DNA from: Patescibacteria group bacterium
Lineage (GTDB): Bacteria; Patescibacteriota; Minisyncoccia; Moranbacterales; UBA2206
Assembly (NCBI GenBank): GCA_030837625.1
Contig: JAUPKF010000004.1
Span: forward strand, 1,075 to 65,074
Length of the DNA stretch: 64,000 bases
Direction of reading: 5' to 3'
Shown here: piece by piece, positions 31,895 through 62,420 of the stretch
Numbering within the stretch: the first letter of the stretch is position 1
Layout of the letters: every line of letters begins with the position of its first letter
The notes under the pieces: model-generated
Database searches by the model: none
The model's input: the letters and a program-made list of their open reading frames with translations, nothing else
What the model was told of the DNA's origin: nothing
Program-made: the position numbers and the translations under genes

Positions 31895-32010
31895 ATCAAC
31901 GAATTATATCCGAATCTACAAATAGCGCTCGCTCGTACCTTCCTTCGGAAACTGCCTCAATATTATTCGTAAATTCGCATTCATTCGTTGATTCGAATCG
32001 GTTTTTTAAC
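31895..32010. repeat. ATTCG-type palindromic intergenic element (ftsE-ftsX spacer)
   Basis: Terminal inverted repeats gatgcgaatcaacgaatta and attcgttgattcgaatcg. Inner atccgaatctacaaata and attattcgtaaattcgc match other copies. Confidence 0.6.
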
Positions 32011-32803
32011 ACATTTTATATTTCCCTCTGGCGTCGTCGCAAACGACGCGTCCGCGCTCCAAAACAATCACCCTTTTGGCCGCCTTATTGACAACTTCCC
32101 GGTCATGACTAGCTAAAATAACGGTTGTTCCCAATTTATTGATCTTGAGAAGCAGTTTCACAATTTCAAGCGACGCTACTGGATCCAAATTCCCCGTCGG
32201 TTCGTCCGCGATAATCACGATGGGCTTGTGGATGAGCGCCCGCGCCATAACCACTTTCTGTTGTTCCCCGCCGGAAAGTTCATGCGGATATTTTTCCATC
32301 TTGTCGGAAAGGCCGACGATGTCCAAAATTTGCGGCACGTCTTCCATAATTTCATCCGTCGGCGCGCCGGAAACTTCCATAGCGTAAGCCACGTTCTCAA
32401 AAGCGGTTTTTTTCGGCAAAAGTTTGAAATCCTGAAAAACCGTTCCAATTCTTCTTCGATGAAACGGCAACTTCCTCCGACTGATGCCGGAAAGCGGCTT
32501 ACCTTCGAAATACACTTCCCCTCCAGTCGGCATTTCTTCGGCATAGATAAGCTTGAGAAAGGTTGATTTTCCCGCTCCGCTGGCTCCGACAATCGACACG
32601 AACTCGCCTTCCTGAATTTCCAGACTGATATCTTCCAGCGCCGCAAAATCGCTGCCGAAAACCTTTTTGACATTGTCAAACTTGATAATCACTCCGTCAT
32701 CTATCTTTCTCTCTTCCATTTCCGCCGCCTCGACCATTTCGTCCGTTCCTGATTCCATTTGATTAATATTTTCTTCGTCTAATATTTCTTCTCGCTTTTC
32801 CAT
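32006..32803 (-). CDS. ftsE: Cell-division ATP-binding protein FtsE, with acidic N-terminal extension
   Basis: Walker A GASGAGKST, signature LSGGEQQKVVMARAL, Walker B IIADEPTGNLD. Adjacent to ftsX. Confidence 0.9.
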   Translation of the reverse strand: MEKREEILDEENINQMESGTDEMVEAAEMEERKIDDGVIIKFDNVKKVFGSDFAALEDISLEIQEGEFVSIVGASGAGKSTFLKLIYAEEMPTGGEVYFEGKPLSGISRRKLPFHRRRIGTVFQDFKLLPKKTAFENVAYAMEVSGAPTDEIMEDVPQILDIVGLSDKMEKYPHELSGGEQQKVVMARALIHKPIVIIADEPTGNLDPVASLEIVKLLLKINKLGTTVILASHDREVVNKAAKRVIVLERGRVVCDDARGKYKMC

Positions 32804-32847
32804 GAAAAAATTTGTTTTCTAAAATATCGCACTGTTTAAATTATACA

Positions 32848-33949
32848 CTATTTCTTAATATACCTCAAGTAGCTTTCCGCAAAACTATTAATATCTCCAT
32901 TCAAAACTCCTTCCGTGTCGGATGTTTCGTATTTCGTCCGATGGTCTTTCACCATTTTATATGGATGAATAACATACGACCTTATTTGACTGCCCCATTC
33001 GGCGCTAACCGCCTCCCCGCGCAACTTTTTCTTTTCCGCTTCCTGCTCTTCCAAATATTTCCGGTGCAGTTTGGCTTTCAAAATTTTCATCGCCTGTTCC
33101 TTGTTTTGCATCTGACTCCGCTCGTTTTGGCAGCTGGCGACTGTGTTGGTCGGGATATGAGTTATCCGCACGGCGCTGTCGGTCGTGTTAACGCTTTGTC
33201 CGCCGGCGCCCGATGAACGGAAAACGTCCACCCGGATATCCTGCGGCCGAATCTCCACTTCTTTCAAGTCTTCTATGACCGGCAAAACTTCCACTAAAGC
33301 AAAAGATGTCTGGCGAAGATTGTCGGAATTGAATGGGGAAAGCCGCACTAGCCGATGCACCCCTGCTTCACTTTTTAAGTTTCCATAAGAATACGCGCCA
33401 GACACTTCCATTGTCACGTTCTTTATCCCAGCTTCCTGCCCCCGCGACTCGTCCACCACTCGCGCTTTGAAATTATTTTTTTCCGCGAAGCGCAAATACA
33501 TCCGCATCAGCATCTCCGCCCAATCCTGCGCGTCCGCTCCTCCGGCTCCCGAATAAATGGAAAGGATAACATCATTGCGGTCATACTCGCCGTCGAAAAG
33601 AGTCTTGAATTCCAAGTCATTCACAACCTTTTCTATAATGCCAACTTCTTTTTCAAGCTCGCCCGCCGAAGCCTTGGCGAAGGCAGGGTCGCCCTCCGCC
33701 ATCTCCGCCATTTCCGCCGCGTCCGCCAATTTTTTTTCGATATCTTTGATTTCCGCGATTTCCTTTTTGAGCTCTTCCATTTCTTGCATTACTCCGCCGG
33801 CCTTTTTTGGATCATCCCAAAAATCAGCTTCCGCGGCTTCCCGCGTCAAGTCCGCAATTTTCCGCGCCTTACTAGGAAAGTCAAAGATAGTCCCGAATGG
33901 TCGGGATTTTAGATTTCAATTCTCTTATCTTTTCTTGAAGCTCTTTCAT
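32848..33949 (-). CDS. prfB: Peptide chain release factor 2, with programmed +1 ribosomal frameshift
   Basis: GGQ motif (GAGGQSVNTT) and RF2-specific SPF (SPFNSDN). The upstream frame MKELQEKIRELKSKIPTIRDYL ends at the canonical CTT TGA C shift site (plus 33880..33886). A +1 shift joins the 333-aa ORF. Confidence 0.85.
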
Positions 33950-34104
33950 AATAAATAAACCGATTGCTTTAAAACAAAATTAAAATCAAAATGTAAATTT
34001 CAAAAATCAAAATGACAAATCAAAATATAAAATGTTTTTATAATTTTAAATTTTACATTGTCATTTTTATTTTTGATTTTTGATTTTTTCATTGATAAAA
34101 ACAG

Positions 34105-34854
34105 CTATTCTAAAACCAAAAGGCTCGCCATCACTCCCACTCCCGCGACAAACGCCAGAATCTGCCCGATGGTTTTTTTGATGGCCGTGTGTTTGTGAAG
34201 TTCAGGAATGAGGTCGGTACCGGCGATGTAGATAAAACCTCCGGCCGCGAAAGGCACGAGAATTTTGGCCATATTTTCCGAATTGAAACTCAAAAGCAAA
34301 ACCAGCATCGCGCCCAAAACCGCCGAAAGAGCCGTCAAGAAATTATACAGCAAAGCTTTGGATCTGGAAAATCCGCCGTAAATCAAAGAGCTGAAATCTC
34401 CGATCTCCTGGGGAATTTCGTGGAAAACCACCGCCACGGTCGTGGCCACGCCGACGGGAAAAGAAATGATGTAGCCGGCGGCAATAATCAGTCCGTCGAT
34501 AAAATTATGAATAACGTCGCCGAAAAGTATCACGTAGGAAAAGGGATGTGGATGGTCTTCGCACGGCTCCTCGTGGCAATGCCGCCAACGAATGGCTTTT
34601 TCCAAGATGAAGAACAGGAGAATTCCGCTAATAAGCAAGAAGGAAACCGTCGTAGGATTATTTTCCTCATAAGCTTCCGGGATGAGATGCAAAAAAGCGT
34701 CCCCCATCAGCGTCCCGGCCGCGAAACTCACCAGATAAATCAGCCAGCGGAAAAGTTTTTTCTGGTCGAAAGACAGCGTAAAAACTCCGACCAAGGAAAT
34801 CAGACTGACTGCGACAACAGAGACAATTGTATAAAACCAGACGCTTGCCATCAT
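34105..34854 (-). CDS. ZIP-family zinc/iron permease (ZupT-like)
   Basis: 249 aa, eight TMs, His-rich loop HCHEEPCEDHPHP, motifs HNFIDGLIIAAGY and HEIPQEIGDF. Confidence 0.85.
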   Translation of the reverse strand: MMASVWFYTIVSVVAVSLISLVGVFTLSFDQKKLFRWLIYLVSFAAGTLMGDAFLHLIPEAYEENNPTTVSFLLISGILLFFILEKAIRWRHCHEEPCEDHPHPFSYVILFGDVIHNFIDGLIIAAGYIISFPVGVATTVAVVFHEIPQEIGDFSSLIYGGFSRSKALLYNFLTALSAVLGAMLVLLLSFNSENMAKILVPFAAGGFIYIAGTDLIPELHKHTAIKKTIGQILAFVAGVGVMASLLVLE

Positions 34855-34875
34855 CTTCTTCGTTAAAACATTGTT

Positions 34876-35859
34876 TTATCCTACAAGACCACTGACTACT
34901 TTTTCCAAGGCTTGGGATGAATATTGAGGATACTCTCTTTCAATCTTGTCCAATCCATTCCTGGAAAGTAAGAGAATATTTTTCAATTCAGGACTCGCCA
35001 CAGAAAGGACGCGAGAGTCTCGATAGCGAAAGAAAGAAACTATGTATGGTTTAAGTTCAGCTGATTCTTGAAAAATATTTTCCGCTTGGGAATGGGTAAA
35101 GTTGGCAGCATATTTCTCCACTTCTGAAAGCGCCTGAATAAACACATCCTCAAATCCTGCATCCTCTCCTTTTCTACTGCTATGTTTTTCAAAAGATACA
35201 CTGTCCTTTTTGCTCTTACTCTTTCTTTTGAAACCAATATCGAAAGTAAACAATCTTCCAAAAATAACCACCAAAGCCAGCGCCACAAGAATCGCCGCTG
35301 CCGCATATGTCCAGGGAGCATAAAATTTCCAAAGATATATTATTTTATAGTAAAACGCCTGCCAGATATTGGCTGGGATAACGGTGAAATATAGTTTGGC
35401 GGCGGCGGCAATTCCGATTACCGCTCCTTCGGAGTTTTCACTTGTCTTGGCCGGACTGGCTTCCACATAAGCAAAATATTTCCCTGGTTCCAGCTTAACC
35501 GGAAGACGGAGCGTAACTTGAACGACTTGAGTTTCTCCGGGGCCCAAATCAAATTCCCGCGGGCCAAATTCGAACCATTCCTTTTGCGGACGATGTTCCG
35601 GCACTCCCTCATGATATTGAATGCCAACTGAATAGGCGGAAGCCTCGTCCCCCGTATTCCGGACGGTGAGAGATGGCATAGAATATATTCCTCCGGGTTT
35701 TAAATCTTCATTGAGTTCAATCTTAGCCGTTCCCACCCCCACTCCGATCTTAGCGAAAGAAATTTTAGCAAAAAAAATTCCCCAAACAAAAAAAGCGGCA
35801 AAAACAACGAAAGAAATTAATGACCGCTTGTTCATAAATTTTCCATTTCTCAAAATCAA
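34876..35859 (-). CDS. Bitopic membrane protein: signal/anchor, beta-sandwich-like ectodomain, TM, cytoplasmic tail
   Basis: 327 aa. N-terminal hydrophobic segment, beta-rich 150-aa domain, central TM YAAAAILVALALVVIFG, then a 130-aa polar tail. Confidence 0.5.
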   Translation of the reverse strand: MILRNGKFMNKRSLISFVVFAAFFVWGIFFAKISFAKIGVGVGTAKIELNEDLKPGGIYSMPSLTVRNTGDEASAYSVGIQYHEGVPEHRPQKEWFEFGPREFDLGPGETQVVQVTLRLPVKLEPGKYFAYVEASPAKTSENSEGAVIGIAAAAKLYFTVIPANIWQAFYYKIIYLWKFYAPWTYAAAAILVALALVVIFGRLFTFDIGFKRKSKSKKDSVSFEKHSSRKGEDAGFEDVFIQALSEVEKYAANFTHSQAENIFQESAELKPYIVSFFRYRDSRVLSVASPELKNILLLSRNGLDKIEREYPQYSSQALEKVVSGLVG

Positions 35860-35861
35860 AT

Positions 35862-36452
35862 CTATTGATAGTAAACCGCCTGAACAGTAACTGTGGCCGT
35901 TTGTTGGGTATAGGTGGCGGTTGTTGTCGGAGTTCCGATTTCCAAATCAAAAACTTGGTTTCCAGTATCAGCCACGTCGTTGGATAATTGTTGGTAGTTG
36001 GTTGTAAGCGCCGTCCAGCTCGGCGTAGTATCGCAAGTAGTGGTGCAAAATTTATGGGTATAATTTTCCGCTCCGGCCGTTCCGGCAAGTGTCCACGCGG
36101 CTGTGTTGAAGCCGCGGACATTGAAGTCCTCCGTTACGTTTCCATCATTGTCAGCCGTTTGAGAGTCGTTCACTCCGGAAGAAGTTGTGTCTTCCGTAGT
36201 GCTCGTCGCAATTGTTCCATAGGAAACCGCTCCATCGGTAACCGCCACGGAAATACTTTGCGCCGTTACTGTCGCCGTCACATCCCCTGTCTGCGCCGCC
36301 CTTACTGAAACAGCCATAAAAATGGCCGCCACGACACAAACGCCGATCTTTAGAAAATAATTTTTCATTATTTTGCTTTTTGTTTTCCCTTGAATAAATC
36401 CCTTTTTGTATAATTCTATCATATTAGAAATAATACACAAGGCAACAAGCAA
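35862..36452 (-). CDS. Small secreted protein sharing a C-terminal domain with the 983-aa surface protein
   Basis: Signal peptide with AxA site (SVRA-AQ). The last 130 aa are colinear with the C-terminus of 36479..39430 through NDGNVTEDFNV / NDGNVAENFNI, GTAG, QVFDLEIGTP / QDFDLKIGTP, TATVTVQAV. Confidence 0.6.
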   Translation of the reverse strand: MLVALCIISNMIELYKKGFIQGKTKSKIMKNYFLKIGVCVVAAIFMAVSVRAAQTGDVTATVTAQSISVAVTDGAVSYGTIATSTTEDTTSSGVNDSQTADNDGNVTEDFNVRGFNTAAWTLAGTAGAENYTHKFCTTTCDTTPSWTALTTNYQQLSNDVADTGNQVFDLEIGTPTTTATYTQQTATVTVQAVYYQ

Positions 36453-36478
36453 ATAAATTATCCACAGTCAGGAAATAT

Positions 36479-48259: not shown

Positions 48260-48263
48260 TTTT

Positions 48264-50556: not shown

Positions 50557-50733
50557 CCGCCGCATTTCCTTTTGATATTAAATCAATAATACTTTGTCGA
50601 TAGATAATCCATAATCGGGGAGTAATAACTTCATATATCGTTAGGAAATGCCGCGGGCACGCCCATATTATCAAAAATGCAGGCACGCCCGAAATCCATA
50701 AATTAGGCAAACTTTTTTGCCTTATGAACTTTC

Positions 50734-50889
50734 CTACTTCACCTCTTTATGATTTACATGCTTTTTGCATTTCTTGCAAAACTTTTTCATTTCCAGCTTT
50801 TCCTTGAGCTTTTTCTTATTTCTGGATGTGAAATAATTGGTAGTCTTGCAAACTTCGCACCTCATTTTGACTAGATTTTCTCGCGCCAT
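50734..50889 (-). CDS. rpmG: 50S ribosomal protein L33
   Basis: 51 aa [51 protein letters not shown] with the CxxC...CxxC zinc ribbon. Below the ORF-track size cutoff. The tRNA-Trp then rpmG arrangement is conserved. Confidence 0.8.
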
Positions 50890-50904
50890 AACAAAATAGT
50901 ATCA

Positions 50905-51004
50905 GGTATTATGTATAAAGTATAAAGTATCGCTCAAAAGCAATCTCCATACAACTCCATACATTATACTTTCTACATTATACTTTATACTTTATACTTT
51001 ATAC
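50905..51004. repeat. AT-rich heptamer-array inverted repeat between rpmG and tRNA-Thr(GGT)
   Basis: Left arm tgtataaagtataaagtat, right arm atactttatactttatactttatact (four copies of atacttt). The arms are reverse complements. Confidence 0.7.
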
Positions 51005-51011
51005 TTGCCTG

Positions 51012-51270: not shown

Positions 51271-51381
51271 AACTTCATGCAACATAAAGCATGAAACATA
51301 AAACACAATTCCGATTCTATATTAACATTCTTCTTACAAAAAAACACTCCAGCGTTTCCACATCGCATGATTAACAAATCC

Positions 51382-51581
51382 GAGCCGGCTGTCAGACTTG
51401 AACTGACGACCTTCATTCACCCCGCACCACTTGCCGATGAGCCGAAGATCGGACTTGAACCGATAACCTTCACTTTACAAAAGTGTTGCTCTACCATTGA
51501 GCTACTTCGGCAAATGGTGCGGGGCAAGCAAAAGTGTTGCTCCCTGCCTGCCGGCAGGCAGGTACCACTGAGCTAAGCCGG
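51382..51581 (-). other. Split or interrupted tRNA-Thr-like gene enclosing tRNA-Thr(TGT)
   Basis: Minus strand 51581 to 51511 reads GCCGGCT-TA-GCTC-AGTGGTA-[cctgcctgccggcaggcagg]-GAGC-A-ACACT-TTTG..., a tRNA 5' half with a 20-nt perfect palindrome in the D-loop. Minus strand 51411 to 51382 reads AGGTC-GTCAG-TTCAAGT-CTGAC-AGCCGGC-T, a matching T-arm and 3' acceptor. A 10-bp helix CCCCGCACCA/TGGTGCGGGG flanks the embedded tRNA. Confidence 0.45.
51439..51510 (-). tRNA. tRNA-Thr (anticodon TGT), nested inside a split tRNA-like locus
   Basis: GCCGAAG-TA-GCTC-AATGGTA-GAGC-A-ACACT-TTTGTAA-AGTGA-AGGTT-ATCGG-TTCAAGT-CCGAT-CTTCGGC-T, with one A-A mismatch at the base of the anticodon stem. Confidence 0.75.
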
Positions 51582-51595
51582 CAGCATGAGAAATA

Positions 51596-52294: not shown

Positions 52295-52300
52295 AGCTTA

Positions 52301-53074
52301 TTATCTGATATCCTCTTTTTTTATAATTATGTATTCTCCCTTTTCAGTCTTGATTTTTATAGTCTGGCTGACCGCGTTAATTTCTACTACCGTCCCTCTG
52401 CCTTCCCGAGTCCCGACTACGCTATACATCTCCGGCATTCCCTCCATCATCTGTTTATACTGTTGGGCTTCATAAGCCAAACAACACATCAGTCTCCCAC
52501 ACAGCCCCGATATTCTCTCCGTCCCCCGGTGAGCGATTTGCTGAACTCTTGCCATATCGGTGGTAATGCTTTGGAGACTTCCACTAAAGTTGCTGCAGCA
52601 AAGAGACCTTCCGCAAACTCCATATCCGCCCAATTTTCTCGCCTCGTCTCGCGAACCAATTTGCTGCATACGAACCGCTTTTTTCAAATCACGGGAAAGA
52701 TCCTTTACCAATTCCCGGAAATCAATCCGCCCGTCAGCTGTGAATGTAAAAATTACCTGTTTACCATCAAGACTGATTCTGGCATCCACCATTTTCATTT
52801 CAAGATCATGTTTCTTAACAGCTTCTTTGCATTTTTCAATCAACTCTTCTTTATATTTTTCATTCTCAAAAAACACTTCCTTATCTTTGGTTGTAGCCAC
52901 TCTCAAAATTTCTCCGGAGATATCATCCTTTGAAGAAACTCTGGTTTCTTCTACCACTCCCAATTCGCTGGCATACGGCGTAACCGCAACCACCTTATCT
53001 CCCTTACCGACTTCCAAATTGCTGGAATAAATTCCAGGATCTTCCCAAGAATATAACCTAACTAAAACTTTCAT
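52301..53074 (-). CDS. PSP1 C-terminal domain protein (RicT/YaaT-like)
   Basis: Conserved Cys pattern GVCGRSLCC...CGRLMCCL characteristic of RicT/YaaT. Confidence 0.8.
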   Translation of the reverse strand: MKVLVRLYSWEDPGIYSSNLEVGKGDKVVAVTPYASELGVVEETRVSSKDDISGEILRVATTKDKEVFFENEKYKEELIEKCKEAVKKHDLEMKMVDARISLDGKQVIFTFTADGRIDFRELVKDLSRDLKKAVRMQQIGSRDEARKLGGYGVCGRSLCCSNFSGSLQSITTDMARVQQIAHRGTERISGLCGRLMCCLAYEAQQYKQMMEGMPEMYSVVGTREGRGTVVEINAVSQTIKIKTEKGEYIIIKKEDIR

Positions 53075-53179
53075 AAATAATTACTCGCTAAAGTAGAACT
53101 AATTTAAGCGAATAGAAGCGAATTTGCTAAAAATAATTAGCTCGCATTCGCTTTCGTTCGCTCGGCTTTCGCGAGTCTG

Positions 53180-53761
53180 TTACAGTTCCATTCTTGAAAA
53201 TCCTCCAACCTGGATATTCTCTCCAATCTTGGCAATTTTTTCCGCGATCAAGTCGGCAATCGTTTGGTCGGGATTTTTCACATAAGCCTGCGTCATAAGA
53301 GAAACTTCCGCCCTATATTTCCTCTCTTTCCCTTCCATTATTTTTGCTATAATTTCTTTCGGCTTTTCTCCCTCCTGGGACACTTGCGCCATCCAAATTT
53401 CCCTTTCCTTTTCCAATTCTTTTTCGGAAACATCTTCCGGTTTTAGATACTTCGGATTCATAGCGGTAATATGCATGGCAATATCTCGCGCCAATGACTT
53501 GAACTCTTCGTTCCTAGCCACAAAATCCGTCTCACAAAGAAGTTTCACCATCGCCCCCACCCTTTCATTGGAATGAACATATGCCGTCACCATTCCTTCA
53601 CTGGCAGTTCTTTCAGACTTTTTAATAGCTTTTTCTTTGCCTCTTTTTCTCAGTATTTCAATGGCTTTGGCCTCATCGCCGGAAGCCTCTTCCAACGCTT
53701 TTTTCACCTCCACGATACCCGCTCCGGTTTGCTCTCTTATTTTTTTTATCTTATCTAACAT
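53180..53761 (-). CDS. tsf: Elongation factor Ts (short form)
   Basis: N-terminal UBA-like KIKKIREQTGAGIVEVKKALEE, then the dimerisation core. Confidence 0.9.
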   Translation of the reverse strand: MLDKIKKIREQTGAGIVEVKKALEEASGDEAKAIEILRKRGKEKAIKKSERTASEGMVTAYVHSNERVGAMVKLLCETDFVARNEEFKSLARDIAMHITAMNPKYLKPEDVSEKELEKEREIWMAQVSQEGEKPKEIIAKIMEGKERKYRAEVSLMTQAYVKNPDQTIADLIAEKIAKIGENIQVGGFSRMEL

Positions 53762-53779
53762 AGGGTTAAATCAAAAAGT

Positions 53780-54646: not shown

Positions 54647-54817
54647 GCGGCGAACCGCTACTTCTCATTTCCGGCTTTTTGATCCCTTTTTTCGAAAGGA
54701 CAGGACAAAGCCTGAAAAGTATGTGTTTTTCGTACCTGTTCAATATATCAATCTTTCCGCCCCTTGTCAATTTCCCTTCTCTATGCTAGATTGGTTTAGT
54801 ATACAAGCCATAAATTA

Positions 54818-54868
54818 AAGAATTCGTAATTCGTACATTCGTACCAATTCGTAATTCGTAAGAGAATT
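54818..54868. repeat. ATTCG-type short repeat array (aattcgta x4) between rpsB and rpmE
   Basis: aattcgtaattcgtacattcgtaccaattcgtaattcgtaa. Confidence 0.6.
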
Positions 54869-54870
54869 CC

Positions 54871-55167
54871 ATGAAAAAAAATACCCATCCCAAATATTAT
54901 TCCACCGCTAAGATAGCCTGCGCTTGCGGGAACGTCATTGAGGCTGGTTCAACCGTGCCGGAAATGAAAGTGGAAATCTGCTCGTCTTGCCATCCATTCT
55001 ACACCGGCAAGAAGAAACTTTTGGATGTCACCGGAAGAGTTGACCGATTCAAGAAAATGGCCGAGAAAGCTACCGAGAAGAAAACCGCCGTTTCCAAGAA
55101 GAAAGCGCGCGTCAGAAAGCCCAAGGCTGAAACGAAGAAAGTTGTTTCCAAGAAAAAGAAAAAGTGA
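54871..55167 (+). CDS. rpmE: 50S ribosomal protein L31 (with Lys-rich C-terminal tail)
   Basis: [21 protein letters not shown]...[10 protein letters not shown] zinc ribbon. C-terminal K-rich extension. Confidence 0.85.
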
Positions 55168-55227
55168 CGACGAAGTCGTCATCCTGAGGATGTTTCGCTT
55201 TTGCGAAACAGACGAAGGATCTATCGT

Positions 55228-55258
55228 CGACATAAAAAAGACAGGCCTATAGCCTGTC
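55228..55258. terminator. Bidirectional intrinsic terminator after rpmE
   Basis: aaaaaagacaggctatagcctgtcttttttg. Confidence 0.8.
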
Positions 55259-55308
55259 TTTTTTGTCATAATCAGTATCGTGTATGATATTCCTCCACTT
55301 CTGAAAAT

Positions 55309-55764
55309 TTATCGCTTCGCCCACTGCGGCGCTCGGCGGGCTTTTAGAAGTCCGGGTTTTTTGCGTTCCACCACTCTGGCGTCTCGCGTCAGAAATCCCC
55401 GATCACGAAGAGCTTTACGCAAAGTTTCATCGAATTTAACCAGGGCTCGCGCGATCCCTAATCGGATGGCTTCCGCCTGGGCATTAATTCCGCCTCCCGC
55501 AACGTGGACCGAAACATCAAACTTTCCTTCTTGCCCGGCAGAAACAATCGGCGACTTTACCGCGTCGCGCAACCGAAACAACGGGAAGTATTCGTCCATC
55601 TTTTTATCATTTACCAAAATTCCCTTGTCCAGCTTCTCGACCGGGTATATCCTCACCTGCGCCACGGCAGTTTTTCTCCGCCCGACAGCGCAGTAATATT
55701 TTTCGGCTTTTACTGTTTCTTCAGCAGTTTCTTTTGGTTCAGGCTTGATTTTCTTTGTAACCAT
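55309..55764 (-). CDS. rpsI: 30S ribosomal protein S9
   Basis: GGGINAQAEAIRLGIARAL...KARRAPQWAKR C-terminus. Confidence 0.9.
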   Translation of the reverse strand: MVTKKIKPEPKETAEETVKAEKYYCAVGRRKTAVAQVRIYPVEKLDKGILVNDKKMDEYFPLFRLRDAVKSPIVSAGQEGKFDVSVHVAGGGINAQAEAIRLGIARALVKFDETLRKALRDRGFLTRDARVVERKKPGLLKARRAPQWAKR

Positions 55765-55774
55765 ACGTATAAAT

Positions 55775-55950
55775 TTCTAATTCACCTAATTTCTAATTCA
55801 CCTAATAAAATTCAATAATTTCTAATAGCAAAATAAAATGTTAAATACCCAATTAAACTTTTTTGAATTTGGCATTAAAAATTTTATTTGACCTTGCTTA
55901 TTTTGGAATTTTATTAGGTGAATTAGGTAATTAGACAATTAGGTGAATTT
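55775..55950. repeat. Long-range inverted repeat in the rplM-rpsI spacer
   Basis: Two direct copies of tttctaattcacctaat at 55775..55815 and two inverted copies (attaggtgaatt) at 55905..55950, enclosing about 90 AT-rich nt. Confidence 0.65.
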
Positions 55951-56355
55951 TCAATGCGTCACTTCTATCTTATGTTGATGATTATTATCCTTATATATCA
56001 GTAGCCTTTTGATCATTCTGTCCCGTAGCTTGTTTTTAGGAAGCATCCCCCAAACCGCGTCGCGAATAACTTTCTCCGACTCGCTTTCCATTCTGTCTCC
56101 CAGTTTTTTGGTGCTTATCCCGCCGGGATATCCGCTAAACTTGTGGTAAAGTTTTCCCTCCATTTTATTGCCAGTTATTCGAAACTTGTCAGAATTGATA
56201 ACTACCGCGAAATCACCGCCGTCGATATGCGGCGCGAAGTCCACCTTATTTTTCCCGCGAAGAACCGAGGCGATTTCCGTCGCCAGTCTTCCCGGGGATT
56301 TGTCCTCGGCGTCAAACAAATGATATTTTCTATTAATTTGGTTTACTTTAGACAT
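55951..56355 (-). CDS. rplM: 50S ribosomal protein L13
   Basis: 134 aa, typical L13 sequence (PGRLATEIASVLRGK...). Confidence 0.9.
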   Translation of the reverse strand: MSKVNQINRKYHLFDAEDKSPGRLATEIASVLRGKNKVDFAPHIDGGDFAVVINSDKFRITGNKMEGKLYHKFSGYPGGISTKKLGDRMESESEKVIRDAVWGMLPKNKLRDRMIKRLLIYKDNNHQHKIEVTH

Positions 56356-56511
56356 ATCGTAGTTATTAAGGGTTTTCGTATTTCGCTTTTTTCGCCCGCC
56401 TGCTTCGAAATGACAATTGGTTGCTTAGTGCCGACACGATTAGCTAATTCAGCTCGTGAGTTATTATTAACACCAGTTAGTATCGAAGCATTTCGGGCAG
56501 GTATTTCGTAA

Positions 56512-56874
56512 CTATACGAATTCAATTACCGCTTTCTTCGCGCCATCGCTTTTGCGAGGCGCCAGTTTTATTATTCTGGCGTAGCCGCTACCCCTCTTTT
56601 CAAACTTAGCCAAAAACTCTCCAGTTATTTTCTTGACAGCCATAGCAGGAATGAACGTCCGCAAATTCCTGACAATCGCCAGCTTCTTTTTTTCATCTCC
56701 GGTCTTTTTAGCCTTATTTATGATTCTATCAATCTTCCTTCTTAGTTCCTTGGCTTTTGCCTCCGTGGTCTCTATCTTTTCGTGCATAATCAAACTGCCC
56801 AGCATTGTCCGGAATAAAGCCTTCCTTTGGTCCTTGTCTCGACTCAATTTTCTGTCGCTTCGTAAGTGTTTCAT
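56512..56874 (-). CDS. rplQ: 50S ribosomal protein L17
   Basis: MKHLRSDRKLSRDKDQRKALFRTM..., an L17 N-terminus. Confidence 0.9.
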   Translation of the reverse strand: MKHLRSDRKLSRDKDQRKALFRTMLGSLIMHEKIETTEAKAKELRRKIDRIINKAKKTGDEKKKLAIVRNLRTFIPAMAVKKITGEFLAKFEKRGSGYARIIKLAPRKSDGAKKAVIEFV

Positions 56875-56884
56875 TTCTTTTTGG

Positions 56885-57889
56885 TTACTCCGCTTTCTTC
56901 AAATTAACGCCAAAGTCACCGATTGCCTTCTTAATTTCTTTAATGCCCTTAGCTCCCATTCCTTCCAATCCGCCCAACTGTTCTTCAGTCAGCTTCAGGA
57001 TGTCTCCGACCTTGGAAATATTGCCTTTCTCTAAAACATTCAATGTCCTGGTAGACAAGCTCTTCAGTTCAGCTATTTCAACTTTCTTTGGATCCATCTC
57101 GACTTTCTTACCTTCTTCTTTCTCTTCAACTTTATCCTCGACAATTTCCTCCTTAAGCGCTTTTTCCTTTCCAGCCGCCTGGACATCCTTCAAAACGGAA
57201 AATTGATCCACCAAAATACCGACTGCCTTCGAAAAAGCTTCCTCTGGATCTATGCTTCCATCAGTCATAATTTCTAAATTTATCTTTTCAAAATCAGTCC
57301 TTTTCCCCACGCGCATATTGGAAATAGCATAGTTGACTCTTTTTATGGGAGTATAAATCGCATCCATTGCAATCACGCCAACTTCTTTTTTCTCCCTGTT
57401 TTGCTGTTCCACAGGAACATAACCGATACCTCCCGCCACTTCCATTTCCATCTCAATCTCTCCCTTGGCGCCAGTGATAGTAGCAATGTGGGCTTCTTTA
57501 TTAACCACTTCGACATCTGAAGAGCATTCGATCATTCCCGCATTAATTTTCTTCTCTCCTTTAATCTTAAGCTGAACCCTTACCGATTCATCCTTATGAA
57601 GACGAAATCGAACCTGCTTCAAATTCAAAATTATCTGGATCACGTCTTCTAGAACATTAGGGATGGTAGAAAACTCATGCTTAACACCCTTGATGCTCAC
57701 TGACGTTATAGCCGCTCCGGAAAGCGAAGAAAGCAACACCCTTCTTAGCGCATTTCCCAATGTTGTCCCGTATCCAGGATAACACCCTTCTATCTCAAAG
57801 TTTCCCGTTTTATCATCAATCATCTTAAACTTTGGTTTTTGAGGAAGTGTAATTTGCATAAATTTCACGTAACACGTATCACGTAACAT
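56885..57889 (-). CDS. rpoA: DNA-directed RNA polymerase alpha subunit
   Basis: 334 aa. N-terminal dimerisation domain. C-terminal alpha-CTD (LEELELSVRS-like ELKSLSTRTLNVLEKGNI). Confidence 0.9.
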   Translation of the reverse strand: MLRDTCYVKFMQITLPQKPKFKMIDDKTGNFEIEGCYPGYGTTLGNALRRVLLSSLSGAAITSVSIKGVKHEFSTIPNVLEDVIQIILNLKQVRFRLHKDESVRVQLKIKGEKKINAGMIECSSDVEVVNKEAHIATITGAKGEIEMEMEVAGGIGYVPVEQQNREKKEVGVIAMDAIYTPIKRVNYAISNMRVGKRTDFEKINLEIMTDGSIDPEEAFSKAVGILVDQFSVLKDVQAAGKEKALKEEIVEDKVEEKEEGKKVEMDPKKVEIAELKSLSTRTLNVLEKGNISKVGDILKLTEEQLGGLEGMGAKGIKEIKKAIGDFGVNLKKAE

Positions 57890-57950
57890 GGAACAAGAAA
57901 TCCCGTGTTATGTGTTATGTGCTGTGTGTTATGTGTTATGTATTTACCTA
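57862..57950. repeat. Heptamer-array hairpin element (rpoA-rpsD spacer); paralog at 59205..59282
   Basis: cacgtaacacgtatcacgtaacatggaacaa ... tgttatgtgttatgtgctgtgtgttatgtgttatgt. The 5' arm pairs with the tgttatg x5 arm using G-U wobbles. Confidence 0.7.
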
Positions 57951-58576
57951 GAATAATATTCCACTACGATTTGCGGATCAGCATTAACACCCATCTGCGC
58001 CCTTTCGGGGCGGTTATTTATAGTCGCTTCCAAACTCTTTGCGTCAAAACCGATCCAAGCCGGAAAATCTTTCTTATTCCTAAGAGCCTGGGCTGTATTT
58101 TTAAAATAGTTTTTCTCTTTTTTGTAAGAGTCTTGGGAAATTTTCTGTCCAATTTTTACTTCGTATGAAGGAATGGTCACTTTTTTCCCGTTGACGCTTA
58201 TCAGACCGTGATTCACTAGCTGTCTGGCTTGAGAGCGAGAACTGGCAAATCCAATCCGGTACACCACGTTGTCCAATCGCATCTCCAGTCTCTCTAAAAG
58301 AAGATCTCCGGTAATTCCCTTTTTCTTTTTTACTTCATCAAAATGCCTTCGAAACTGGGCTTCCAAAACGCCATAAATCCTCTTAATTTTTTGTTTGACA
58401 GAAAGTTGCGTCCCGTATTCGCTAAGACCGCGCTTCATTTTTTTTCCGTGGACTCCCGGAGCATAAGCACGCTTAACTACTCCGCATTTTGGAGTATAGC
58501 AACGGTCGCCTTTGAGAAAAAGCTTTTCTCCGGCTCTCCGGCATTTTCTACATTTTGGATCAATATCTCGTGCCAT
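57944..58576 (-). CDS. rpsD: 30S ribosomal protein S4
   Basis: MARDIDPKCRKCRRAGEKLFLKGDRCYTPKC zinc-finger N-terminus. ATG at 58576. The ORF-track extension to 58588 begins on a non-ATG codon. Confidence 0.9.
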   Translation of the reverse strand: MARDIDPKCRKCRRAGEKLFLKGDRCYTPKCGVVKRAYAPGVHGKKMKRGLSEYGTQLSVKQKIKRIYGVLEAQFRRHFDEVKKKKGITGDLLLERLEMRLDNVVYRIGFASSRSQARQLVNHGLISVNGKKVTIPSYEVKIGQKISQDSYKKEKNYFKNTAQALRNKKDFPAWIGFDAKSLEATINNRPERAQMGVNADPQIVVEYYSR

Positions 58577-58588
58577 AATTATATACAC

Positions 58589-58685
58589 CGATCCGAATCT
58601 ACGAATATATCCGAATTCACGAATTTCTTATTCGCGTAATTCGTAGATTCGTAGATTCGAATGTCATTCGTAGATTCGCATCGCG
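58589..58685. repeat. ATTCG-type palindromic intergenic element (rpsK-rpsD spacer)
   Basis: ccgatccgaatctacgaatatatccgaattcacgaatttcttattcgcgtaattcgtagattcgtagattcgaatgtcattcgtagattcgc. Its ends are inverted copies of each other. Confidence 0.65.
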
Positions 58686-59210
58686 TTATACTCTTCGGGG
58701 TTTTTTGGGCCGGCATCCATTATGTGGAATCGGCGTTATGTCTTTTATCAAATTTAAATCAAAACCATTATTGGCTAGGGCCCTAATGGAAGCCTCTCTG
58801 CCGGAACCGACTCCTTTCACAAAAACATCCAACTCCCGCACTCCATATTTCCTAACTTTTTCACTCACATTCGCCACTACCTGAGTCGCGGCATAAGGAG
58901 TAGCCTTTTTAGCTCCCTTAAATCCAAGCAACCCCGAAGTAGCCCACCCCAAAACTCCACCGCTCAAGTCCGTTATACTGACAGAGGTGTTATTGTAAGT
59001 GCATTTTACCATCGCTTTTCCCTTAAGCACTTGCCTCTTAGCTTTCTTTATTTTTTTAATTTTCTCGGCTTCCACTTCGGTTTTTTCTTTCAAATCAACA
59101 GCGATGTCTCCCTTTCCCACTTCCACTTTCAAATCCCCAGCCTTCTCCGCCGTCTTCTGCTTTTCTTCTATTTTAATCTTCTTATCTTCCTCCATGTCAT
59201 CACGCAACAC
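58686..59210 (-). CDS. rpsK: 30S ribosomal protein S11 (with K/E-rich N-terminal extension)
   Basis: Conserved core ...GLLGFKGAKKATPYAAT... ending in the C-terminal RRV. 45-aa extension. Confidence 0.9.
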   Translation of the reverse strand: MLRDDMEEDKKIKIEEKQKTAEKAGDLKVEVGKGDIAVDLKEKTEVEAEKIKKIKKAKRQVLKGKAMVKCTYNNTSVSITDLSGGVLGWATSGLLGFKGAKKATPYAATQVVANVSEKVRKYGVRELDVFVKGVGSGREASIRALANNGFDLNLIKDITPIPHNGCRPKKPRRV

Positions 59211-59282
59211 GTATCACGTAACATGGAACAAAATACGAATCCGATGTTATGTGTTATGTGTTATGTGTTATGTGATTTAGGT
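59205..59282. repeat. Heptamer-array hairpin element (rpsM-rpsK spacer), copy 2
   Basis: catcacgcaacacgtatcacgtaacatggaacaa ... tgttatgtgttatgtgttatgtgttatgtga. Confidence 0.7.
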
Positions 59283-59663
59283 TTTTTCCGTCTTGACTCT
59301 TCCCGAACCCATCGTTCGCCTGACATTTCCCCGAACAGTCCGGTTGTTTGTCTTGGTCCTTTGTCCTCTCGTCGGAAGACCCCTTTGATGCCGAACTCCG
59401 CGATAGCAGCCAATTTCTTTCAGCCGCTTCACATTATCTCTGACGATATGTTTGAGTTCGCCTTCAACCTTCACTGTTTTTTCTATATAACTTCTAATTT
59501 CATTTTGTTCTTCTTCGGACAAATCTTTGGTTCTTTTGAGTTTGGAAATCTTCAATTCGTCCAAAATTTTGGACGCGGTTGTCTGCCCTATGCCATAAAT
59601 ATAGGTCAAAGATATTTCTATTCTTTTTTCGTCCGGAATATTAACTCCTGATATTCTTAACAT
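59277..59663 (-). CDS. rpsM: 30S ribosomal protein S13
   Basis: [26 protein letters not shown]... Confidence 0.9.
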
Positions 59664-59752
59664 ATTTTACCGATTCGAATCTTCGAATACATTCGAATTC
59701 ACGAATCTACAAATTATTCGTATGGGCGCATTCGTAGCGCGCTATTCGCATG
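59664..59752. repeat. ATTCG-type palindromic intergenic element (rpmJ-rpsM spacer)
   Basis: ccgattcgaatcttcgaatacattcgaattcacgaatctacaaattattcgtatgggcgcattcgtagcgcgctattcgcatgc. Shares gaattcacgaat and ctacaaat...ttattcgta with other copies. Confidence 0.65.
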
Positions 59753-59866
59753 CTATCCTTGGCGTTGCTTGTGCTTTGGATTGGAACAAATCACGTAAAG
59801 TTTTCCTTTACGCTTGACTGTCTTGCACTTATCACAAATCTTTTTCACTGACGCTCTCACTTTCAT
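59753..59866 (-). CDS. rpmJ: 50S ribosomal protein L36
   Basis: [37 protein letters not shown], 37 aa, below the ORF-track size cutoff. Confidence 0.85.
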
Positions 59867-59870
59867 ATTT

Positions 59871-60107
59871 TTATAGTCTTTTGGTTATTCTTCCCTTAGT
59901 CAAATCATACGGACTCATTTCTACCAAAACTTTGTCGCCTGGAATTAGTCTTATATAATTAACCCTCATTCTGCCGGAAATATGAGCTAAAATCTCATGT
60001 CCATTGCTTAACTTAACCTTAAAAGTCGTGCTTGGCAAGGTTTCCATCACTTCGCCTTCTAATTTTACCAGCTCTTTATCGTTAGCCATAGGCGGATTTT
60101 TTTCCAA
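59871..60107 (-). CDS. infA: Translation initiation factor IF-1
   Basis: S1-like OB fold ...[57 protein letters not shown]... Confidence 0.9.
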
Positions 60108-60285
60108 ACTAAAACGCTGAGAGAAATAAGTCCAAATTCCGGAAAAACTTTCCCTCTACTAAAAGCTTTATTGTGTTTTTCAATGTCTTAGACTATCTTA
60201 ACTCGTATGTCATTCTCTGTCAACCCCGTTAGAGATATTCTCGCTAGGAGCCCTCTCTTCAGAGACACCAAGCGCAACATTATCA

Positions 60286-62322
60286 TCAATCTCTAACGGG
60301 GTCAAGCACCACTTCTACCCGCCTCTCATAAGACGGAATTCTATTAGAAAAGAAGTTTGGCCAGTACATAACCTCGACTTTCTCAATATCTGGATAAGTG
60401 CTCAGATACTCTTCCAAATCAGCGTTGTTTTTGCCAAGGATATTTTTTTTCAAATTATTCAGATCTATGCTAGCGGAAATTTCTCCAGTGCCACCCACTT
60501 TTATGTCTAAGGAACCAGTCTTGAAATCGGGACTGGATTTGCCGTATGTCAGCCTAATAGAGCCTATATCAATCTTCGACTCCCCATTTCCTGATTTTTC
60601 GATCAAACGATTGACCATATTCTTCAAATCGCTTTCCTTGAAAATAATTATTTGAGCTTTCGACTGGATTGAAATTTCGAAATTATCGGTTACCTCTCCC
60701 ACTGAATTAGAGATTTTGTAAGTTGGCTCTTCGACGAACAAAGCGTCGTCCAAGATAACCGCATCCTGCCCGACATCTTCTTTGATTTTTTGCTTCAACG
60801 CCCCGTTGAACTCCGCCAAAATTTTTTTCTTGGCAGTGTCGATATCCTCTTGAGAAACCGAGCTGGCTTCCTGTCCGTCACCGCCTCCTCCGGACATAGC
60901 CTTAGCCGAAACGGCGTAAAATTTGACATACTTGTCTGCCCCGCTATCTTTGAACCCGGGAATAGAAAACTTCCCCGGACCGATATTATAGGATTGACCC
61001 GCTTCGTCCGCAACCACGTCAGCCTCGATAACTCCCGGCTTTGTTTCCTCTCCGACTTTGGTTGTTCCTGGAACCGTTACTCCCGCCGCCAAACGGAACA
61101 ATTTCCCGTCCTCACTGACGAATCTCGTGGTAGCCACAAGCGGCTGGGGACTTGAGCCAAATTCATTGTAAATAGTTATTGTCCCTCTGGCTTTTTGTCC
61201 GGAAACAGAACTCTTTCCGCTAGAGCCATACTTCTTTGAAACTTCATGTTCAATTGCCAACAACTTTGAAGGAATGGCTTCTTTCTCATAATCAACTTCC
61301 GAATAACTTGGATCGCCTTTTATGAGAGTATCTATCGACTTTGTCTTCTCCTTGACCGATATAGACACTGTGGCCTTTGGAATGAAAAGATAGCCAGCCA
61401 CAGCCAGAAGCGCTACAACAAACATCGCCCCAAAAGCCAAAAACAAGCGGTTAAAACTGCCGGAAATTTTTTCGCTGCCAAAAACATTTTTTTCTTTTTT
61501 CTGGATTGGCGCCGACTTTCCCTCTGAATTTCCGAAAACTCCATCATACAAGGTGGGATATCCGCCGGCAGCAGAGTCTGCACTATTGCGCGATTTAGTT
61601 CCGCTAAAAAAGTTTTCTATCTTCTTGTCTTCCGGTAAAGAAGCGGCCTCTCTTCCTGCTGATATTTGGTTGCCTACTGATAGTCGCTGAGTTCCGCCAC
61701 CGCCGAAAACATCCATAGCCGTAACTCTTTTAAGCATCCCTCCCGAAGATTTTTCACCTCTCCCGAGTCCAAGCGTCCGGGGTGTCCTATTGACATCACT
61801 GTCCGTCCCCAATACTAGCTCCCGGTTAACTATCCTCTCCTGACCCCTTTCATTTTCAGTTTTGTCAATGGGAGATTTGTCCGACTCTCTACCTATCTCA
61901 GGAGTCTCCGATTCTCCGGTAAAATAGTTATCAGATCCCATTTTCTCTATCCTTTCTTTTATTCCCTTTTTGTCTTCAATGTTTTCGGAAATATCCGAAA
62001 CGTTTTTTTTCAATTCTGATCCCGTTTCAACTCCCTCCTTGCCGGGAAGCATCTCTTCATCAGAAATATCATCAAGTTTTTGCTGGACCAAAATTCCGGC
62101 TTTTTCAATAAGAAGCTTGCCTAACTTGTCTTGCGTCACGATCATAAGCTGAAGTCCGAGGATTTCCGCCTCTTTCTTGAGAACTCGCAAATTTATTATA
62201 CTCTGAATAAGCAACGCTCGCTTAGGCACTACCATGATTATCTCCTCTGCTCGGGATTTCCTCAACCGCTCCACAATAGAAGTTATCTCCTCGTCAATGT
62301 CGATGTAAAATGTTTGATGCAT
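60286..62322 (-). CDS. Large bitopic hypothetical protein (cytoplasmic N-domain, one TM, Gly/Ser-rich extracytoplasmic C-domain)
   Basis: Preferred start MHQTFYIDIDEEITSIVERLRKS (ATG 62322). The ORF-track extension to 62370 starts on GTG within the repeat element. TM LFLAFGAMFVVALLAVAGYLFI. Sits between ftsA and infA. Confidence 0.55.
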   Translation of the reverse strand: MHQTFYIDIDEEITSIVERLRKSRAEEIIMVVPKRALLIQSIINLRVLKKEAEILGLQLMIVTQDKLGKLLIEKAGILVQQKLDDISDEEMLPGKEGVETGSELKKNVSDISENIEDKKGIKERIEKMGSDNYFTGESETPEIGRESDKSPIDKTENERGQERIVNRELVLGTDSDVNRTPRTLGLGRGEKSSGGMLKRVTAMDVFGGGGTQRLSVGNQISAGREAASLPEDKKIENFFSGTKSRNSADSAAGGYPTLYDGVFGNSEGKSAPIQKKEKNVFGSEKISGSFNRLFLAFGAMFVVALLAVAGYLFIPKATVSISVKEKTKSIDTLIKGDPSYSEVDYEKEAIPSKLLAIEHEVSKKYGSSGKSSVSGQKARGTITIYNEFGSSPQPLVATTRFVSEDGKLFRLAAGVTVPGTTKVGEETKPGVIEADVVADEAGQSYNIGPGKFSIPGFKDSGADKYVKFYAVSAKAMSGGGGDGQEASSVSQEDIDTAKKKILAEFNGALKQKIKEDVGQDAVILDDALFVEEPTYKISNSVGEVTDNFEISIQSKAQIIIFKESDLKNMVNRLIEKSGNGESKIDIGSIRLTYGKSSPDFKTGSLDIKVGGTGEISASIDLNNLKKNILGKNNADLEEYLSTYPDIEKVEVMYWPNFFSNRIPSYERRVEVVLDPVRD

Positions 62323-62334
62323 AAATTTAAACGA

Positions 62335-62420
62335 ATTTTTACGAATTATAAACGAATTTGCGCGAATCACGAATTCGTGCTTCGTGAAAATTCGTTTCCT
62401 ATTCGTATTTATTCGTCTAT
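62335..62420. repeat. ATTCG-type palindromic element centred on CACGAATTCGTG (ftsA to downstream gene spacer)
   Basis: aaacgaatttttacgaattataaacgaatttgcgcgaatcacgaattcgtgcttcgtgaaaattcgtttcctattcgtatttattcgtc. The left arm has acgaatt repeats and the right arm has aattcgt repeats. Confidence 0.65.

Follow-up and report, generated by a model that had tools for sequence, protein, structure and literature searches.

The 64-kb window analyzed here (the whole stretch of DNA under study, 64,000 nucleotides [nt] of contig JAUPKF010000004.1 from a Patescibacteria group bacterium, used as the reference throughout) contains five intergenic elements, E1 to E5, that are built from short CGAAT/ATTCG words and lie among ribosomal-protein and cell-division genes. 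These spacers are probably gene-less derivatives, resembling miniature inverted-repeat transposable elements (MITEs) and the hairpin-forming doublets (REPINs) of repetitive extragenic palindromic (REP) sequences, of a nuclease-associated mobile palindrome that is widespread in the Candidate Phyla Radiation (CPR)/Patescibacteria, a reading to which we assign a probability of roughly 0.6. The repeat family and its arms, distribution and positions, its insertion polymorphism, and the association of its arms with a nuclease gene, with words that differ by nuclease clade, can be read directly from the genomes compared. An earlier note on this DNA had described five ATTCG-word spacers, all of which are present, with bounds that shift by a few bases on refinement, and a probable sixth member was added:

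E1, 31886-32001, no strand assigned: 116-nt gene-less palindromic element between the ftsE stop codon (32006-32008) and the ftsX start codon (31875-31877).
E2, 54820-54868, plus strand: single arm with five ATTCGTA words, all pointing the same way, ending 12 nt before the rpmE ATG (54871).
E3, 58588-58683, no strand assigned: 96-nt gene-less palindromic element occupying the whole gap from the rpsK stop codon (58686-58688) to the rpsD start codon (58574-58576).
E4, 59670-59752, no strand assigned: 83-nt element between the rpmJ stop codon (59753-59755) and the rpsM start codon (59661-59663).
E5, 62328-62419, no strand assigned: 92-nt palindrome between the ftsA stop codon (62422-62424) and the ATG (62320-62322) of a downstream gene coding for 678 amino acids (aa).
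Probable sixth member, about 53100-53170, no strand assigned: degenerate GCGAAT/ATTCGC palindrome, with a word cluster at 53109-53150, in the spacer between open reading frames (ORFs) 52301-53074 and 53180-53761.

Pfam identifies the flanking genes as ftsE/ftsX (E1), the divergent pair rpsB/rpmE (E2), rpsK/rpsD (E3), and ftsA together with the 678-aa protein (E5), a large protein of unknown family, in agreement with the proposal that the elements separate genes that are normally contiguous, such as ftsE/ftsX and rpsK/rpsD. E4 is flanked by rpmJ and rpsM, with rpmJ (37 aa) sitting between infA and the element. The word ATTCGTA occurs 23 times in the window, compared with 9.1 expected (a count reached by 0 of 100 shuffles), five clusters of at least five CGAAT/ATTCG words are present where Markov simulations predict 0.017, and 42 of the 166 CGAAT/ATTCG words are concentrated in 0.68% of the window length. 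E1, E3, and E4 have common 37- to 38-nt arms with 84 to 89% identity in either orientation, so that the longer shared segments reported earlier are real: positions 58587-58624 and 59669-59706 (E3/E4) are 89% identical over 38 nt, 31887-31923 matches the reverse complement of 58647-58683 (E1/E3) at 86%, and 31965-32002 matches the reverse complement of 59669-59706 (E1/E4) at 84%.

The elements differ in how well they preserve the terminal inverted repeats that had been attributed to all of them. E1, E3, and E5 are strong palindromes with RNA fold z scores of -6.2 (-47.8 kcal/mol), -6.3, and -6.1, respectively. The E1 arms are CCGATGCGAATCAACGAAT... and ...ATTCGTTGATTCGAATCGG, separated by a central non-word loop of about 40 nt, and E5 is an inverted pair with 46-nt arms centered on CACGAATTCGTG (62368-62379), the perfect palindrome that had been noticed in one copy. 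In E4, the left arm is intact and the right arm is degenerate, holding the reverse complement of a 37-nt module, CATGCGAATAGCGCGCTACGAATGCGCCCATACGAAT, and its fold is not above shuffles (z = -0.6). E2 is a one-directional array with no inverted partner and no significant fold; it lies downstream of a promoter-like site at 54764-54792 and is therefore probably in the 5' untranslated region of rpmE.

The strict four-word pattern at the spacing seen in the window (CGAATCWWCGAATN{5,6}CGAATNNNCGAAT) finds four window arms and nothing in shuffles. When searched in the species-representative genomes of GTDB (596 Gb), a set that lacks the source genome of the window, it matches more than 101 stretches, with about 0.1 matches expected by chance according to a hand estimate for that amount of DNA. 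At least 61 of the first 80 matches carry a CPR/Patescibacteria label and 11 are labeled as other phyla, taking the labels as given; the matching CPR classes include Saccharibacteria, Moranbacteria, Falkowbacteria, Doudnabacteria, Nomurabacteria, Uhrbacteria, Wolfebacteria, Roizmanbacteria, Gracilibacteria, and Microgenomates. There were no matches in viral contigs. The earlier note had left it open whether copies would be found elsewhere or conserved in close relatives; many more exist, and the family is phylum-wide rather than genome-specific.

The 101 loci selected by CGAAT words (L001 to L101; 737 kb), a sample biased toward the arm architecture searched for, range from 30 to 67% GC and contain 142 word clusters. 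Together with the window they include 56 palindromes in which CGAAT precedes ATTCG and none with the opposite polarity; half elements consisting of single arms are common. The arm is a conserved 37-nt module, (C/G)CGAT-N-CGAAT-CWW-CGAAT-..CAT-N-CGAAT-YNN-CGAAT, and the termini are also conserved, ending in ...ATTCGTAGATTCG(Y)ATCG(G/C), which often precedes a brief AT-rich linker and an ATG, with the mirror image, (C/G)CGATNCGAATCTAC, following the upstream stop codon. GTAG stands ahead of the final word in 67 of 181 ends, but it belongs to a repeated 8-nt unit. The number of units differs between orthologous copies, with L054 having four CGAATCTG units more than L014. E2 is 97.6% identical over 41 nt to L006 positions 4784-4824, which have another gene context, and more generally there are 40-nt stretches with 95 to 97% identity between genomes whose coding DNA does not exceed 78% identity.

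In 13 aligned copies (several Doudnabacteria and one Nomurabacteria locus), the words are invariant and their spacing is conserved, whereas the inter-word spacers vary, with double changes in only 2 of 28 pairs. The transcribed strand has no advantage over its complement in fold energy (17 versus 28; P = 0.12), and word variants that keep sense-strand G·U pairs are about as numerous as those that break pairing (8 versus 6). With invariant words and neither covariation nor strand bias, the constraint thus acts on a specific sequence with polarity and not on base pairing as such.

A search for arm pairs lying farther apart than a loop would place them revealed an enclosed ORF in L092 and L045, coding for a 126- to 135-aa protein of the PD-(D/E)XK nuclease family PF13366/TIGR04256 ("GxxExxY protein"; E = 1e-21 to 1e-22). 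Seven homologues were detected by tblastn in the CGAAT-selected loci and none in the loci selected by S4, and five of the seven (L092, L045, L091, L070, and L059) are enclosed by CGAAT and ATTCG arms. The L091 termini (CCGATTCGAATC...GATTCGAATCGG) are those of E1 and E4, the L045 termini (GCGATGCGAAT...ATTCGCATCGC) match the E3 end, and the window arms and those of both loci can be aligned column by column. The gene and its arms also overlap: the start codon lies inside the last left-arm words, and the C terminus, ...RI(H/D)S*, is encoded by right-arm words of the ATTCATTCGTAG type. Five further close homologues, picked by protein similarity alone (L186, L190, L191, L195, and L196), all have CGAAT or CAAAT upstream and ATTCG or ATTTG downstream, such that CGAAT-type arms enclose the GxxExxY gene in 10 of 10 close cases. 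The genes are located as follows:

L186: GxxExxY gene between ruvA and fpg, which are co-oriented operon genes.
L190: GxxExxY gene between genes for a type IV secretion system ATPase and a glycosyltransferase, co-oriented.
L191, L195, and L196: GxxExxY gene between wzm and wzt, co-oriented.

Further insertion contexts are between radA and a gene for a flavin adenine dinucleotide (FAD) protein and between ade and a mannose-1-phosphate guanylyltransferase gene; in the ruvA, wzm, radA, and ade contexts, spacers are 16 to 60 nt. In L195, 29 to 31 nt of the wzt 5' end (ATGTTAAACTCAGCAATTGAAATAAAAA) are present twice, just before the GxxExxY ORF (~1470-1500) and after the right arm (~1919-1950), a duplicate that resembles the trace left by insertion or recombination. 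In L198 to L200 (1932-2315), a PF05635 (23S_rRNA_IVP/bAvd four-helix-bundle) gene directly follows the GxxExxY gene; PF05635 is another small family associated with intervening-sequence-like insertions.

The words of the arms change with the clade of the nuclease. The L085 nuclease (58% identical) is bracketed by TACAGAT...ATCTGTA, and a second CPR clade (about 30% identical; L017, L198, L201, and L203) has the brackets (TC)TGAACCACTGATTA...TAATCAGTGGTTCAGA in four of four members, also written GAACCACTGATT...AATCAGTGGTTC, with CACTGATT as the clade B word. Three homologues on IMG/VR contigs each have inverted words peculiar to them (TGAAACGAAT, GATGAACC, and a 48-nt pair). The arrangement is not confined to CPR, since inverted arms also surround GxxExxY genes of cultured bacteria outside it: Bacteroides finegoldii (L211, plasmid NZ_OY725952.1, 431-902) has CACAGAGGA/TCCTCTGTG arms (30 nt at 90%), Bernardetia (L212, 454-904) has CACAGAGA arms, and Treponema saccharophilum (L210, 431-891) has a 16-nt inverted pair, CACGGATTCG, each gene being wedged between co-oriented housekeeping genes. 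No inverted words were found in the flanks of a Persicobacter homologue. Overall, 19 of 22 GxxExxY genes have flanking inverted repeats above the 99th percentile of 1,500 random positions with the same geometry, with a median score of 22 versus 8.5 ± 1.8 at random positions.

The protein is a predicted PD-(D/E)XK enzyme, as judged from its modeled fold and its E...D...ExK residues, which agree with the alpha-beta-beta-beta-alpha-beta core and the E...D...(D/E)xK catalytic residues of that superfamily. In 30 sequences of two CPR clades, residues E37, Y40, D69, and K81 do not vary, and E79 hardly does (≥90% conserved). An AlphaFold model (predicted local distance difference test score of 88.6) retrieves only PD-(D/E)XK nuclease folds with Foldseek, and these matches are weak and at the superfamily level (Cas4 SSO0001 [E = 2e-3], lambda exonuclease, tRNA-splicing endonuclease, I-Bth0305I, and Hjc). 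A sequence search of solved structures found no close relative of the GxxExxY nuclease. The literature searched contains no paper that ties GxxExxY proteins to repeats or reports REP-like elements in CPR, and an earlier description elsewhere is possible.

Comparison with relatives reveals filled and empty sites. The ftsE>ftsX spacer is 13 to 19 nt long in the Moranbacteria-type relatives L182 and L184, versus 128 nt in the window, where it reads AAAA, followed by CCGAT...ATCGG (E1) and GAATATTT, with clean ends; the rpsK>rpsD spacer that holds E3 is empty (5 nt) in L082. The copy between rpmJ and rpsM (E4) is kept in the close relatives L004 and L082, with the 37-nt module 92 to 97% identical, and L082 carries this module twice in adjacent spacers, after infA and after rpmJ. 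Turnover in the ribosomal-protein region involves a further repeat:

Second palindrome family, 57860-57943 and 59199-59276: paralogous copies filling the rpsD>rpoA and rpsM>rpsK spacers, with left arms of CACATAAC words and right arms of GTTACGTG words.

Because these palindromes lie in the spacers, the rpoA and rpsK ORF calls are over-extended, and the true starts are near 57859 and 59198. The congener L102 is 81% identical in nucleotides over 7.3 kb, with S4 95% identical, and the same five spacers (L102 2153-6728 versus window 57860-62421) are all filled, but by palindromes that are not homologous to those of the window. ACAGAAT/ATTCTGT words replace the CGAAT elements at ftsA>p694, rpmJ>rpsM, and rpsK>rpsD, and a CGAAT/ATTTG element replaces the second family at rpsM>rpsK and rpsD>rpoA, such that L102 retains the partition of the five spacers into two families although the sequences have been replaced. 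Pairings recur with other words in L103 (ftsA>p694 with rpsK>rpsD) and in L108 (rpsM>rpsK with rpsD>rpoA). More distant genomes that use Shine-Dalgarno sequences have short, plain spacers. Copies within a locus are more alike than those between loci (median identity, 0.75 versus 0.62; P = 2.6e-5). Insertion polymorphism, within-genome homogenization, and overwriting are the behavior of a repeat family, and the MITE- or REP-like interpretation offered in the earlier note was broadly right, given multiple copies, defined 37-nt inverted arms, filled and empty sites, and likeness within a genome.

These patterns suggest a mechanism. A full-length member is about 0.5 kb long, with a 37-nt left arm (a CGAT leader and then four TACGAAT-type words spaced by 8/10-11/8 nt), a nuclease gene of 126 to 135 aa with its start and stop codons within arm words, and an inverted right arm; the window copies retain the arms and would have lost the gene, or never had it, with E2 retaining one arm. 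The nuclease would recognize its cognate words or the palindrome, and the break would be repaired from another copy in a process resembling homing or gene conversion. Such repair-type copying would account for the absence of target-site duplications and the within-genome likeness of copies, as well as for the replacement of one family by a different one in a given spacer and for arms shared among distant CPR lineages. In co-transcribed housekeeping operons, where the elements occupy gaps between a stop codon and the following start, the arms would fold back and bring both codons to within a few nucleotides of the foot of a single stem, which would explain tolerance of the elements there. Nuclease activity, the cleavage target, the movement of copies, and any effect on expression are what we infer from this arrangement. 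By extension, and a little short of even odds, GxxExxY (PF13366) proteins may be the enzymes of an undescribed and very compact class of bacterial selfish elements, in which a nuclease gene of ~126 aa with 30- to 40-nt inverted arms of clade-specific words would spread without target duplication into stop-to-start gaps, shed gene-less palindromes, and drive concerted, species-specific turnover of spacers; the ribosomal-operon spacers of CPR would then be largely their footprint, and the class would reach Bacteroidota, Spirochaetota, and viral contigs.

Placement of the elements was analyzed with crude gene calls. Although 86% of the DNA is coding, 65% of clusters overlap ORF calls by less than 20%, and 69% have an ATG-initiated ORF that starts within 60 nt and reads away from them. 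Most often, 7 to 17 nt separate the last word from the ATG, and the elements span from the upstream stop codon to about 6 to 17 nt before the next ATG. Downstream genes code for ribosomal proteins (S11, S13, S19, S8, S5, S14, S6, S18, L20, L35, L15, L10, and L13), RpoA, IF3, trigger factor, aminoacyl-tRNA synthetases, and CTP synthase, and for the cell-division proteins MraZ, MraW, FtsA, and MurG; these are diverse housekeeping genes and not one family, which rules out a single regulon. L022 contains five near-identical copies in the S10/spc operon and L005 has two copies around rpmI; the infA-rplQ operon is present in six loci, in five of which (L001, L004, L016, L082, and L087) arrays lie in or beside it, in spacers that differ by genome. 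Tandem, convergent, and divergent gene pairs occur at elements in background proportions, and a terminator scan found no terminator-like site on the minus (sense) strand at E1 to E5 and one partial plus-strand call inside E5; a terminator or promoter role is ruled out by these two results. Shine-Dalgarno-like motifs in the 25 nt before starts are rare and near chance in the window and L001 to L101, with 15% of background genes and 6% of array-adjacent genes having one. Short AT-rich linkers come before the starts, and in several window genes a TGnTATAAT-like box lies only a few nucleotides away from the ATG.

Several points weigh against descent from a nuclease-associated mobile palindrome. 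There is no GxxExxY gene in the 64-kb window by tblastn, which makes a cognate nuclease in this organism hypothetical. No transposase was found beside the elements and, among flanking ORFs, there was no Y1 transposase in the top families of 87 or in the ~36 with domain annotations among the first 48. Target-site duplications, whose presence the earlier note had proposed to check, are absent at E1 relative to the empty sites of L182 and L184, and at E3 relative to L082. Three observations would also be expected of a host function: the predicted stem starts a median of 2 nt after the upstream same-strand stop codon and ends a median of 6 nt before the next ATG, the elements are enriched beside ribosomal-protein, translation, and cell-division genes, and the same spacers stay occupied in the window, L102, and L103. 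PF13366 was listed with function unknown and "multiple transfers" in a 2012 survey (PMC3424549). Equally compatible with the data is that the nuclease gene is a homing parasite of palindromes that existed before it, although the origin and spread of the palindromes are then left unexplained.

The three observations just given are accommodated directly if the elements are functional intercistronic RNA hairpins, which act in translational coupling (a ribosome finishing the upstream gene opens the foot of the stem and so frees the following start codon) or as signals for RNase III processing or stability, the nuclease gene being an occasional passenger. The stems fill stop-to-start gaps and are strongly folded (z about -6), the operons concerned are those for ribosomal proteins, initiation factors, RpoA, and division and cell wall (dcw) functions, spacers remain filled despite sequence replacement, and Shine-Dalgarno-like motifs are rare in these genomes. 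This explanation nonetheless seems unlikely. The words are invariant while the spacers between them vary uncompensated, the sense strand has no fold advantage, wobble and mismatch variants are balanced, gene orientations match background, and no terminator-like tail is found on the sense strand; moreover, half elements are common, the same spacer lacks an element in close relatives, and a generic hairpin requires neither the 56:0 polarity nor words fixed across a phylum. Rfam 15, which includes ribosomal-protein leaders, reported only tRNAs above the gathering threshold in the window and, at E values up to 5, only chance microRNA-like matches in the elements. The structured RNA spacers suggested in the earlier note thus find no support in covariation, G·U strand asymmetry, or the terminator scan.

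Invariance of the words could alternatively reflect binding by a conserved CPR regulator or nucleoid protein, with tandem 8-bp-spaced TACGAAT words bound cooperatively as operator arrays controlling growth-related operons. Cooperative tandem operators are established elsewhere, as in MetJ boxes and omega-repressor heptads. Conservation of a 5- to 7-nt word and its spacing while spacers drift, the fixed polarity of two arrays, the translation and division genes beside them in many lineages, and the location of E2 just downstream of a promoter-like site are all in keeping with operators. We regard this as improbable, because L102 has wholly different words in the same spacers, and at least six other word families are present in this one window, such that a genome of ~1 Mb would need many regulators. 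Most copies follow a stop codon within an operon and are not located at promoters, the sites are empty in relatives, and no protein was found in physical linkage with the words except the nuclease whose gene they enclose; of the protein-binding arrays considered earlier, what stands is that the words are probably what a nuclease recognizes.

Locally generated low-complexity DNA, arising from replication slippage and hairpin-templated correction with no dedicated enzyme and with CGAAT recurring by chance or mutational bias, fits the unit-number variation between L054 and L014 and the many word families, but it is very hard to reconcile with a 37-nt arm that has the same leader, word order, and spacing in genomes of 30 to 67% GC from many CPR classes, with nearly identical 40-nt stretches in otherwise divergent genomes, with clean boundaries against empty sites, and with arm words that follow nuclease clades. 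Alternative Shine-Dalgarno/anti-Shine-Dalgarno pairing, tRNA T-loop mimicry (TTCGAAT), DNA uptake sequences, GANTC methylation, and MazF-type cleavage words were set aside, as none explains the 37-nt arm, the polarity, or the nuclease link.

The ATTCG family is one of several word-built palindrome families in the window. At least five further inverted-repeat families occupy its spacers (an ATACAT type, an A/T-rich TTTTGA/AAATTT type, TAATTCACCTAAT, AGTATATAG/AAATACT, and a TTTCG type), in addition to two long single hairpins, and these further families and hairpins are located at the following positions:

43411-43446, 44435-44467, 44826-44876, and 50887-51005.
22404-22504, 33988-34093, and 45143-45225.
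55777-55942.
30860-30965.
56360-56511.
15240-15350.
27679-27716.

Other repeats in the window include a CIRCE-like inverted repeat, TTAGCACTC-N9-GAGTGCTAA, at ~24128-24154, upstream of ORF 23377-24114, which is probably hrcA by synteny with L182. A 164-nt direct repeat with 93% identity (2712-2875 and 7086-7249) has its copies 4.4 kb apart, and a 73-nt direct repeat with 75% identity (17247-17319 and 50586-50658) is shared by two distant spacers or small ORFs.

The usual picture of CPR/Patescibacteria genomes is that they are small, streamlined, and repeat-poor. In this one 64-kb window, word-built palindromes fill about 20 spacers, some of which belong to ribosomal-protein operons. They account for the differing distances between genes that are normally contiguous, and they probably cause assembly breaks and over-extended ORF calls in CPR metagenome-assembled genomes; in the window, the calls for rpsD, rpsK, rpoA, and a 694-aa ORF run too far into elements. 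The tie between repeat and nuclease gives PF13366/TIGR04256 a concrete, testable role and, if the proposed relationship is true, could provide a group of small nucleases that each recognize a short word particular to their clade.

Among known systems, free-standing homing endonuclease genes include those responsible for "intronless homing" in phage T4 (seg/mob), and I-Ssp6803I is a homing endonuclease of the PD-(D/E)XK type, so this fold can serve homing. The GxxExxY ORFs are similarly small, lie between conserved genes in the same orientation with little promoter space, are patchily distributed, and lack target duplication, and a spread by break repair would co-convert flanks. Homing endonuclease genes differ in that they are normally without 30- to 40-nt inverted word arrays and are not known to leave abundant gene-less palindromes.

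Bacterial MITEs, such as Correia/NEMIS (Neisseria), ERIC/IRU, BOX, and RUP, are intergenic sequences of about 50 to 150 bp that are transcribed and hairpin-forming. Like them, the window elements have inverted ends (37-nt arms), lengths of 83 to 116 nt, no coding capacity, and multiple copies, with presence or absence varying between relatives and a modular make-up like that of BOX. They differ in having no target-site duplication, whereas Correia duplicates TA, and no DDE transposase partner; the candidate partners with the same ends (L091, L045, L092, L186, and others) encode a predicted PD-(D/E)XK nuclease. Insertion exactly in stop-to-start gaps and the replacement of one family by another at the same site are also distinctive.

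TIGR (tandem interspaced guide RNA) arrays of TIGR-Tas systems, which are common in CPR, contain short interspaced repeats, some with palindromic stems; the units are 36 nt, with two alternating 8- to 12-nt repeats, 9-nt spacers, and box C/D motifs, in arrays of 5 to 15 units beside a tas (Nop-domain) gene (PMC12045711; 10.64898/2026.09.09.750476). The elements here have one 5- to 7-nt word with 3- to 6-nt spacers in two inverted arms and are scattered in housekeeping operons, and there is no Nop-domain gene among their annotated neighbor genes; they are not TIGR arrays, by architecture and by the absence of tas nearby.

The closest analogy is offered by REPINs and the REP-associated tyrosine transposases (RAYTs) of Escherichia, Pseudomonas, and Stenotrophomonas. 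These are likewise short extragenic palindromes that occur as doublets and form hairpins of about 70 to 120 nt, in many copies that are often within operons, with several classes per genome that differ between related strains, and the enzyme gene is itself flanked by inverted repeats (PMC3686654). Copy numbers of the palindrome are in line with this comparison, with 5 to 6 in 64 kb and 56 palindromic copies in the 101 loci plus the window. The differences concern the enzyme, which is a predicted 126-aa PD-(D/E)XK nuclease (PF13366) instead of a Y1/HUH RAYT (IS200/IS605-like); the arms, which are AT-rich arrays of 5- to 7-nt words, apparently in place of a GT(A/G)G head with a GC-rich stem; the sharing of arm sequence across a whole phylum, whereas REPs are species-specific; and the nuclease reading frame, which starts and ends inside the arms. 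With enzyme class, arm architecture, and phylum-wide sharing all different, the elements would fall outside the REPIN-RAYT group, and the association of word-built palindromes with GxxExxY proteins would, if true, provide a second and mechanistically different counterpart of the REPIN-RAYT relationship.

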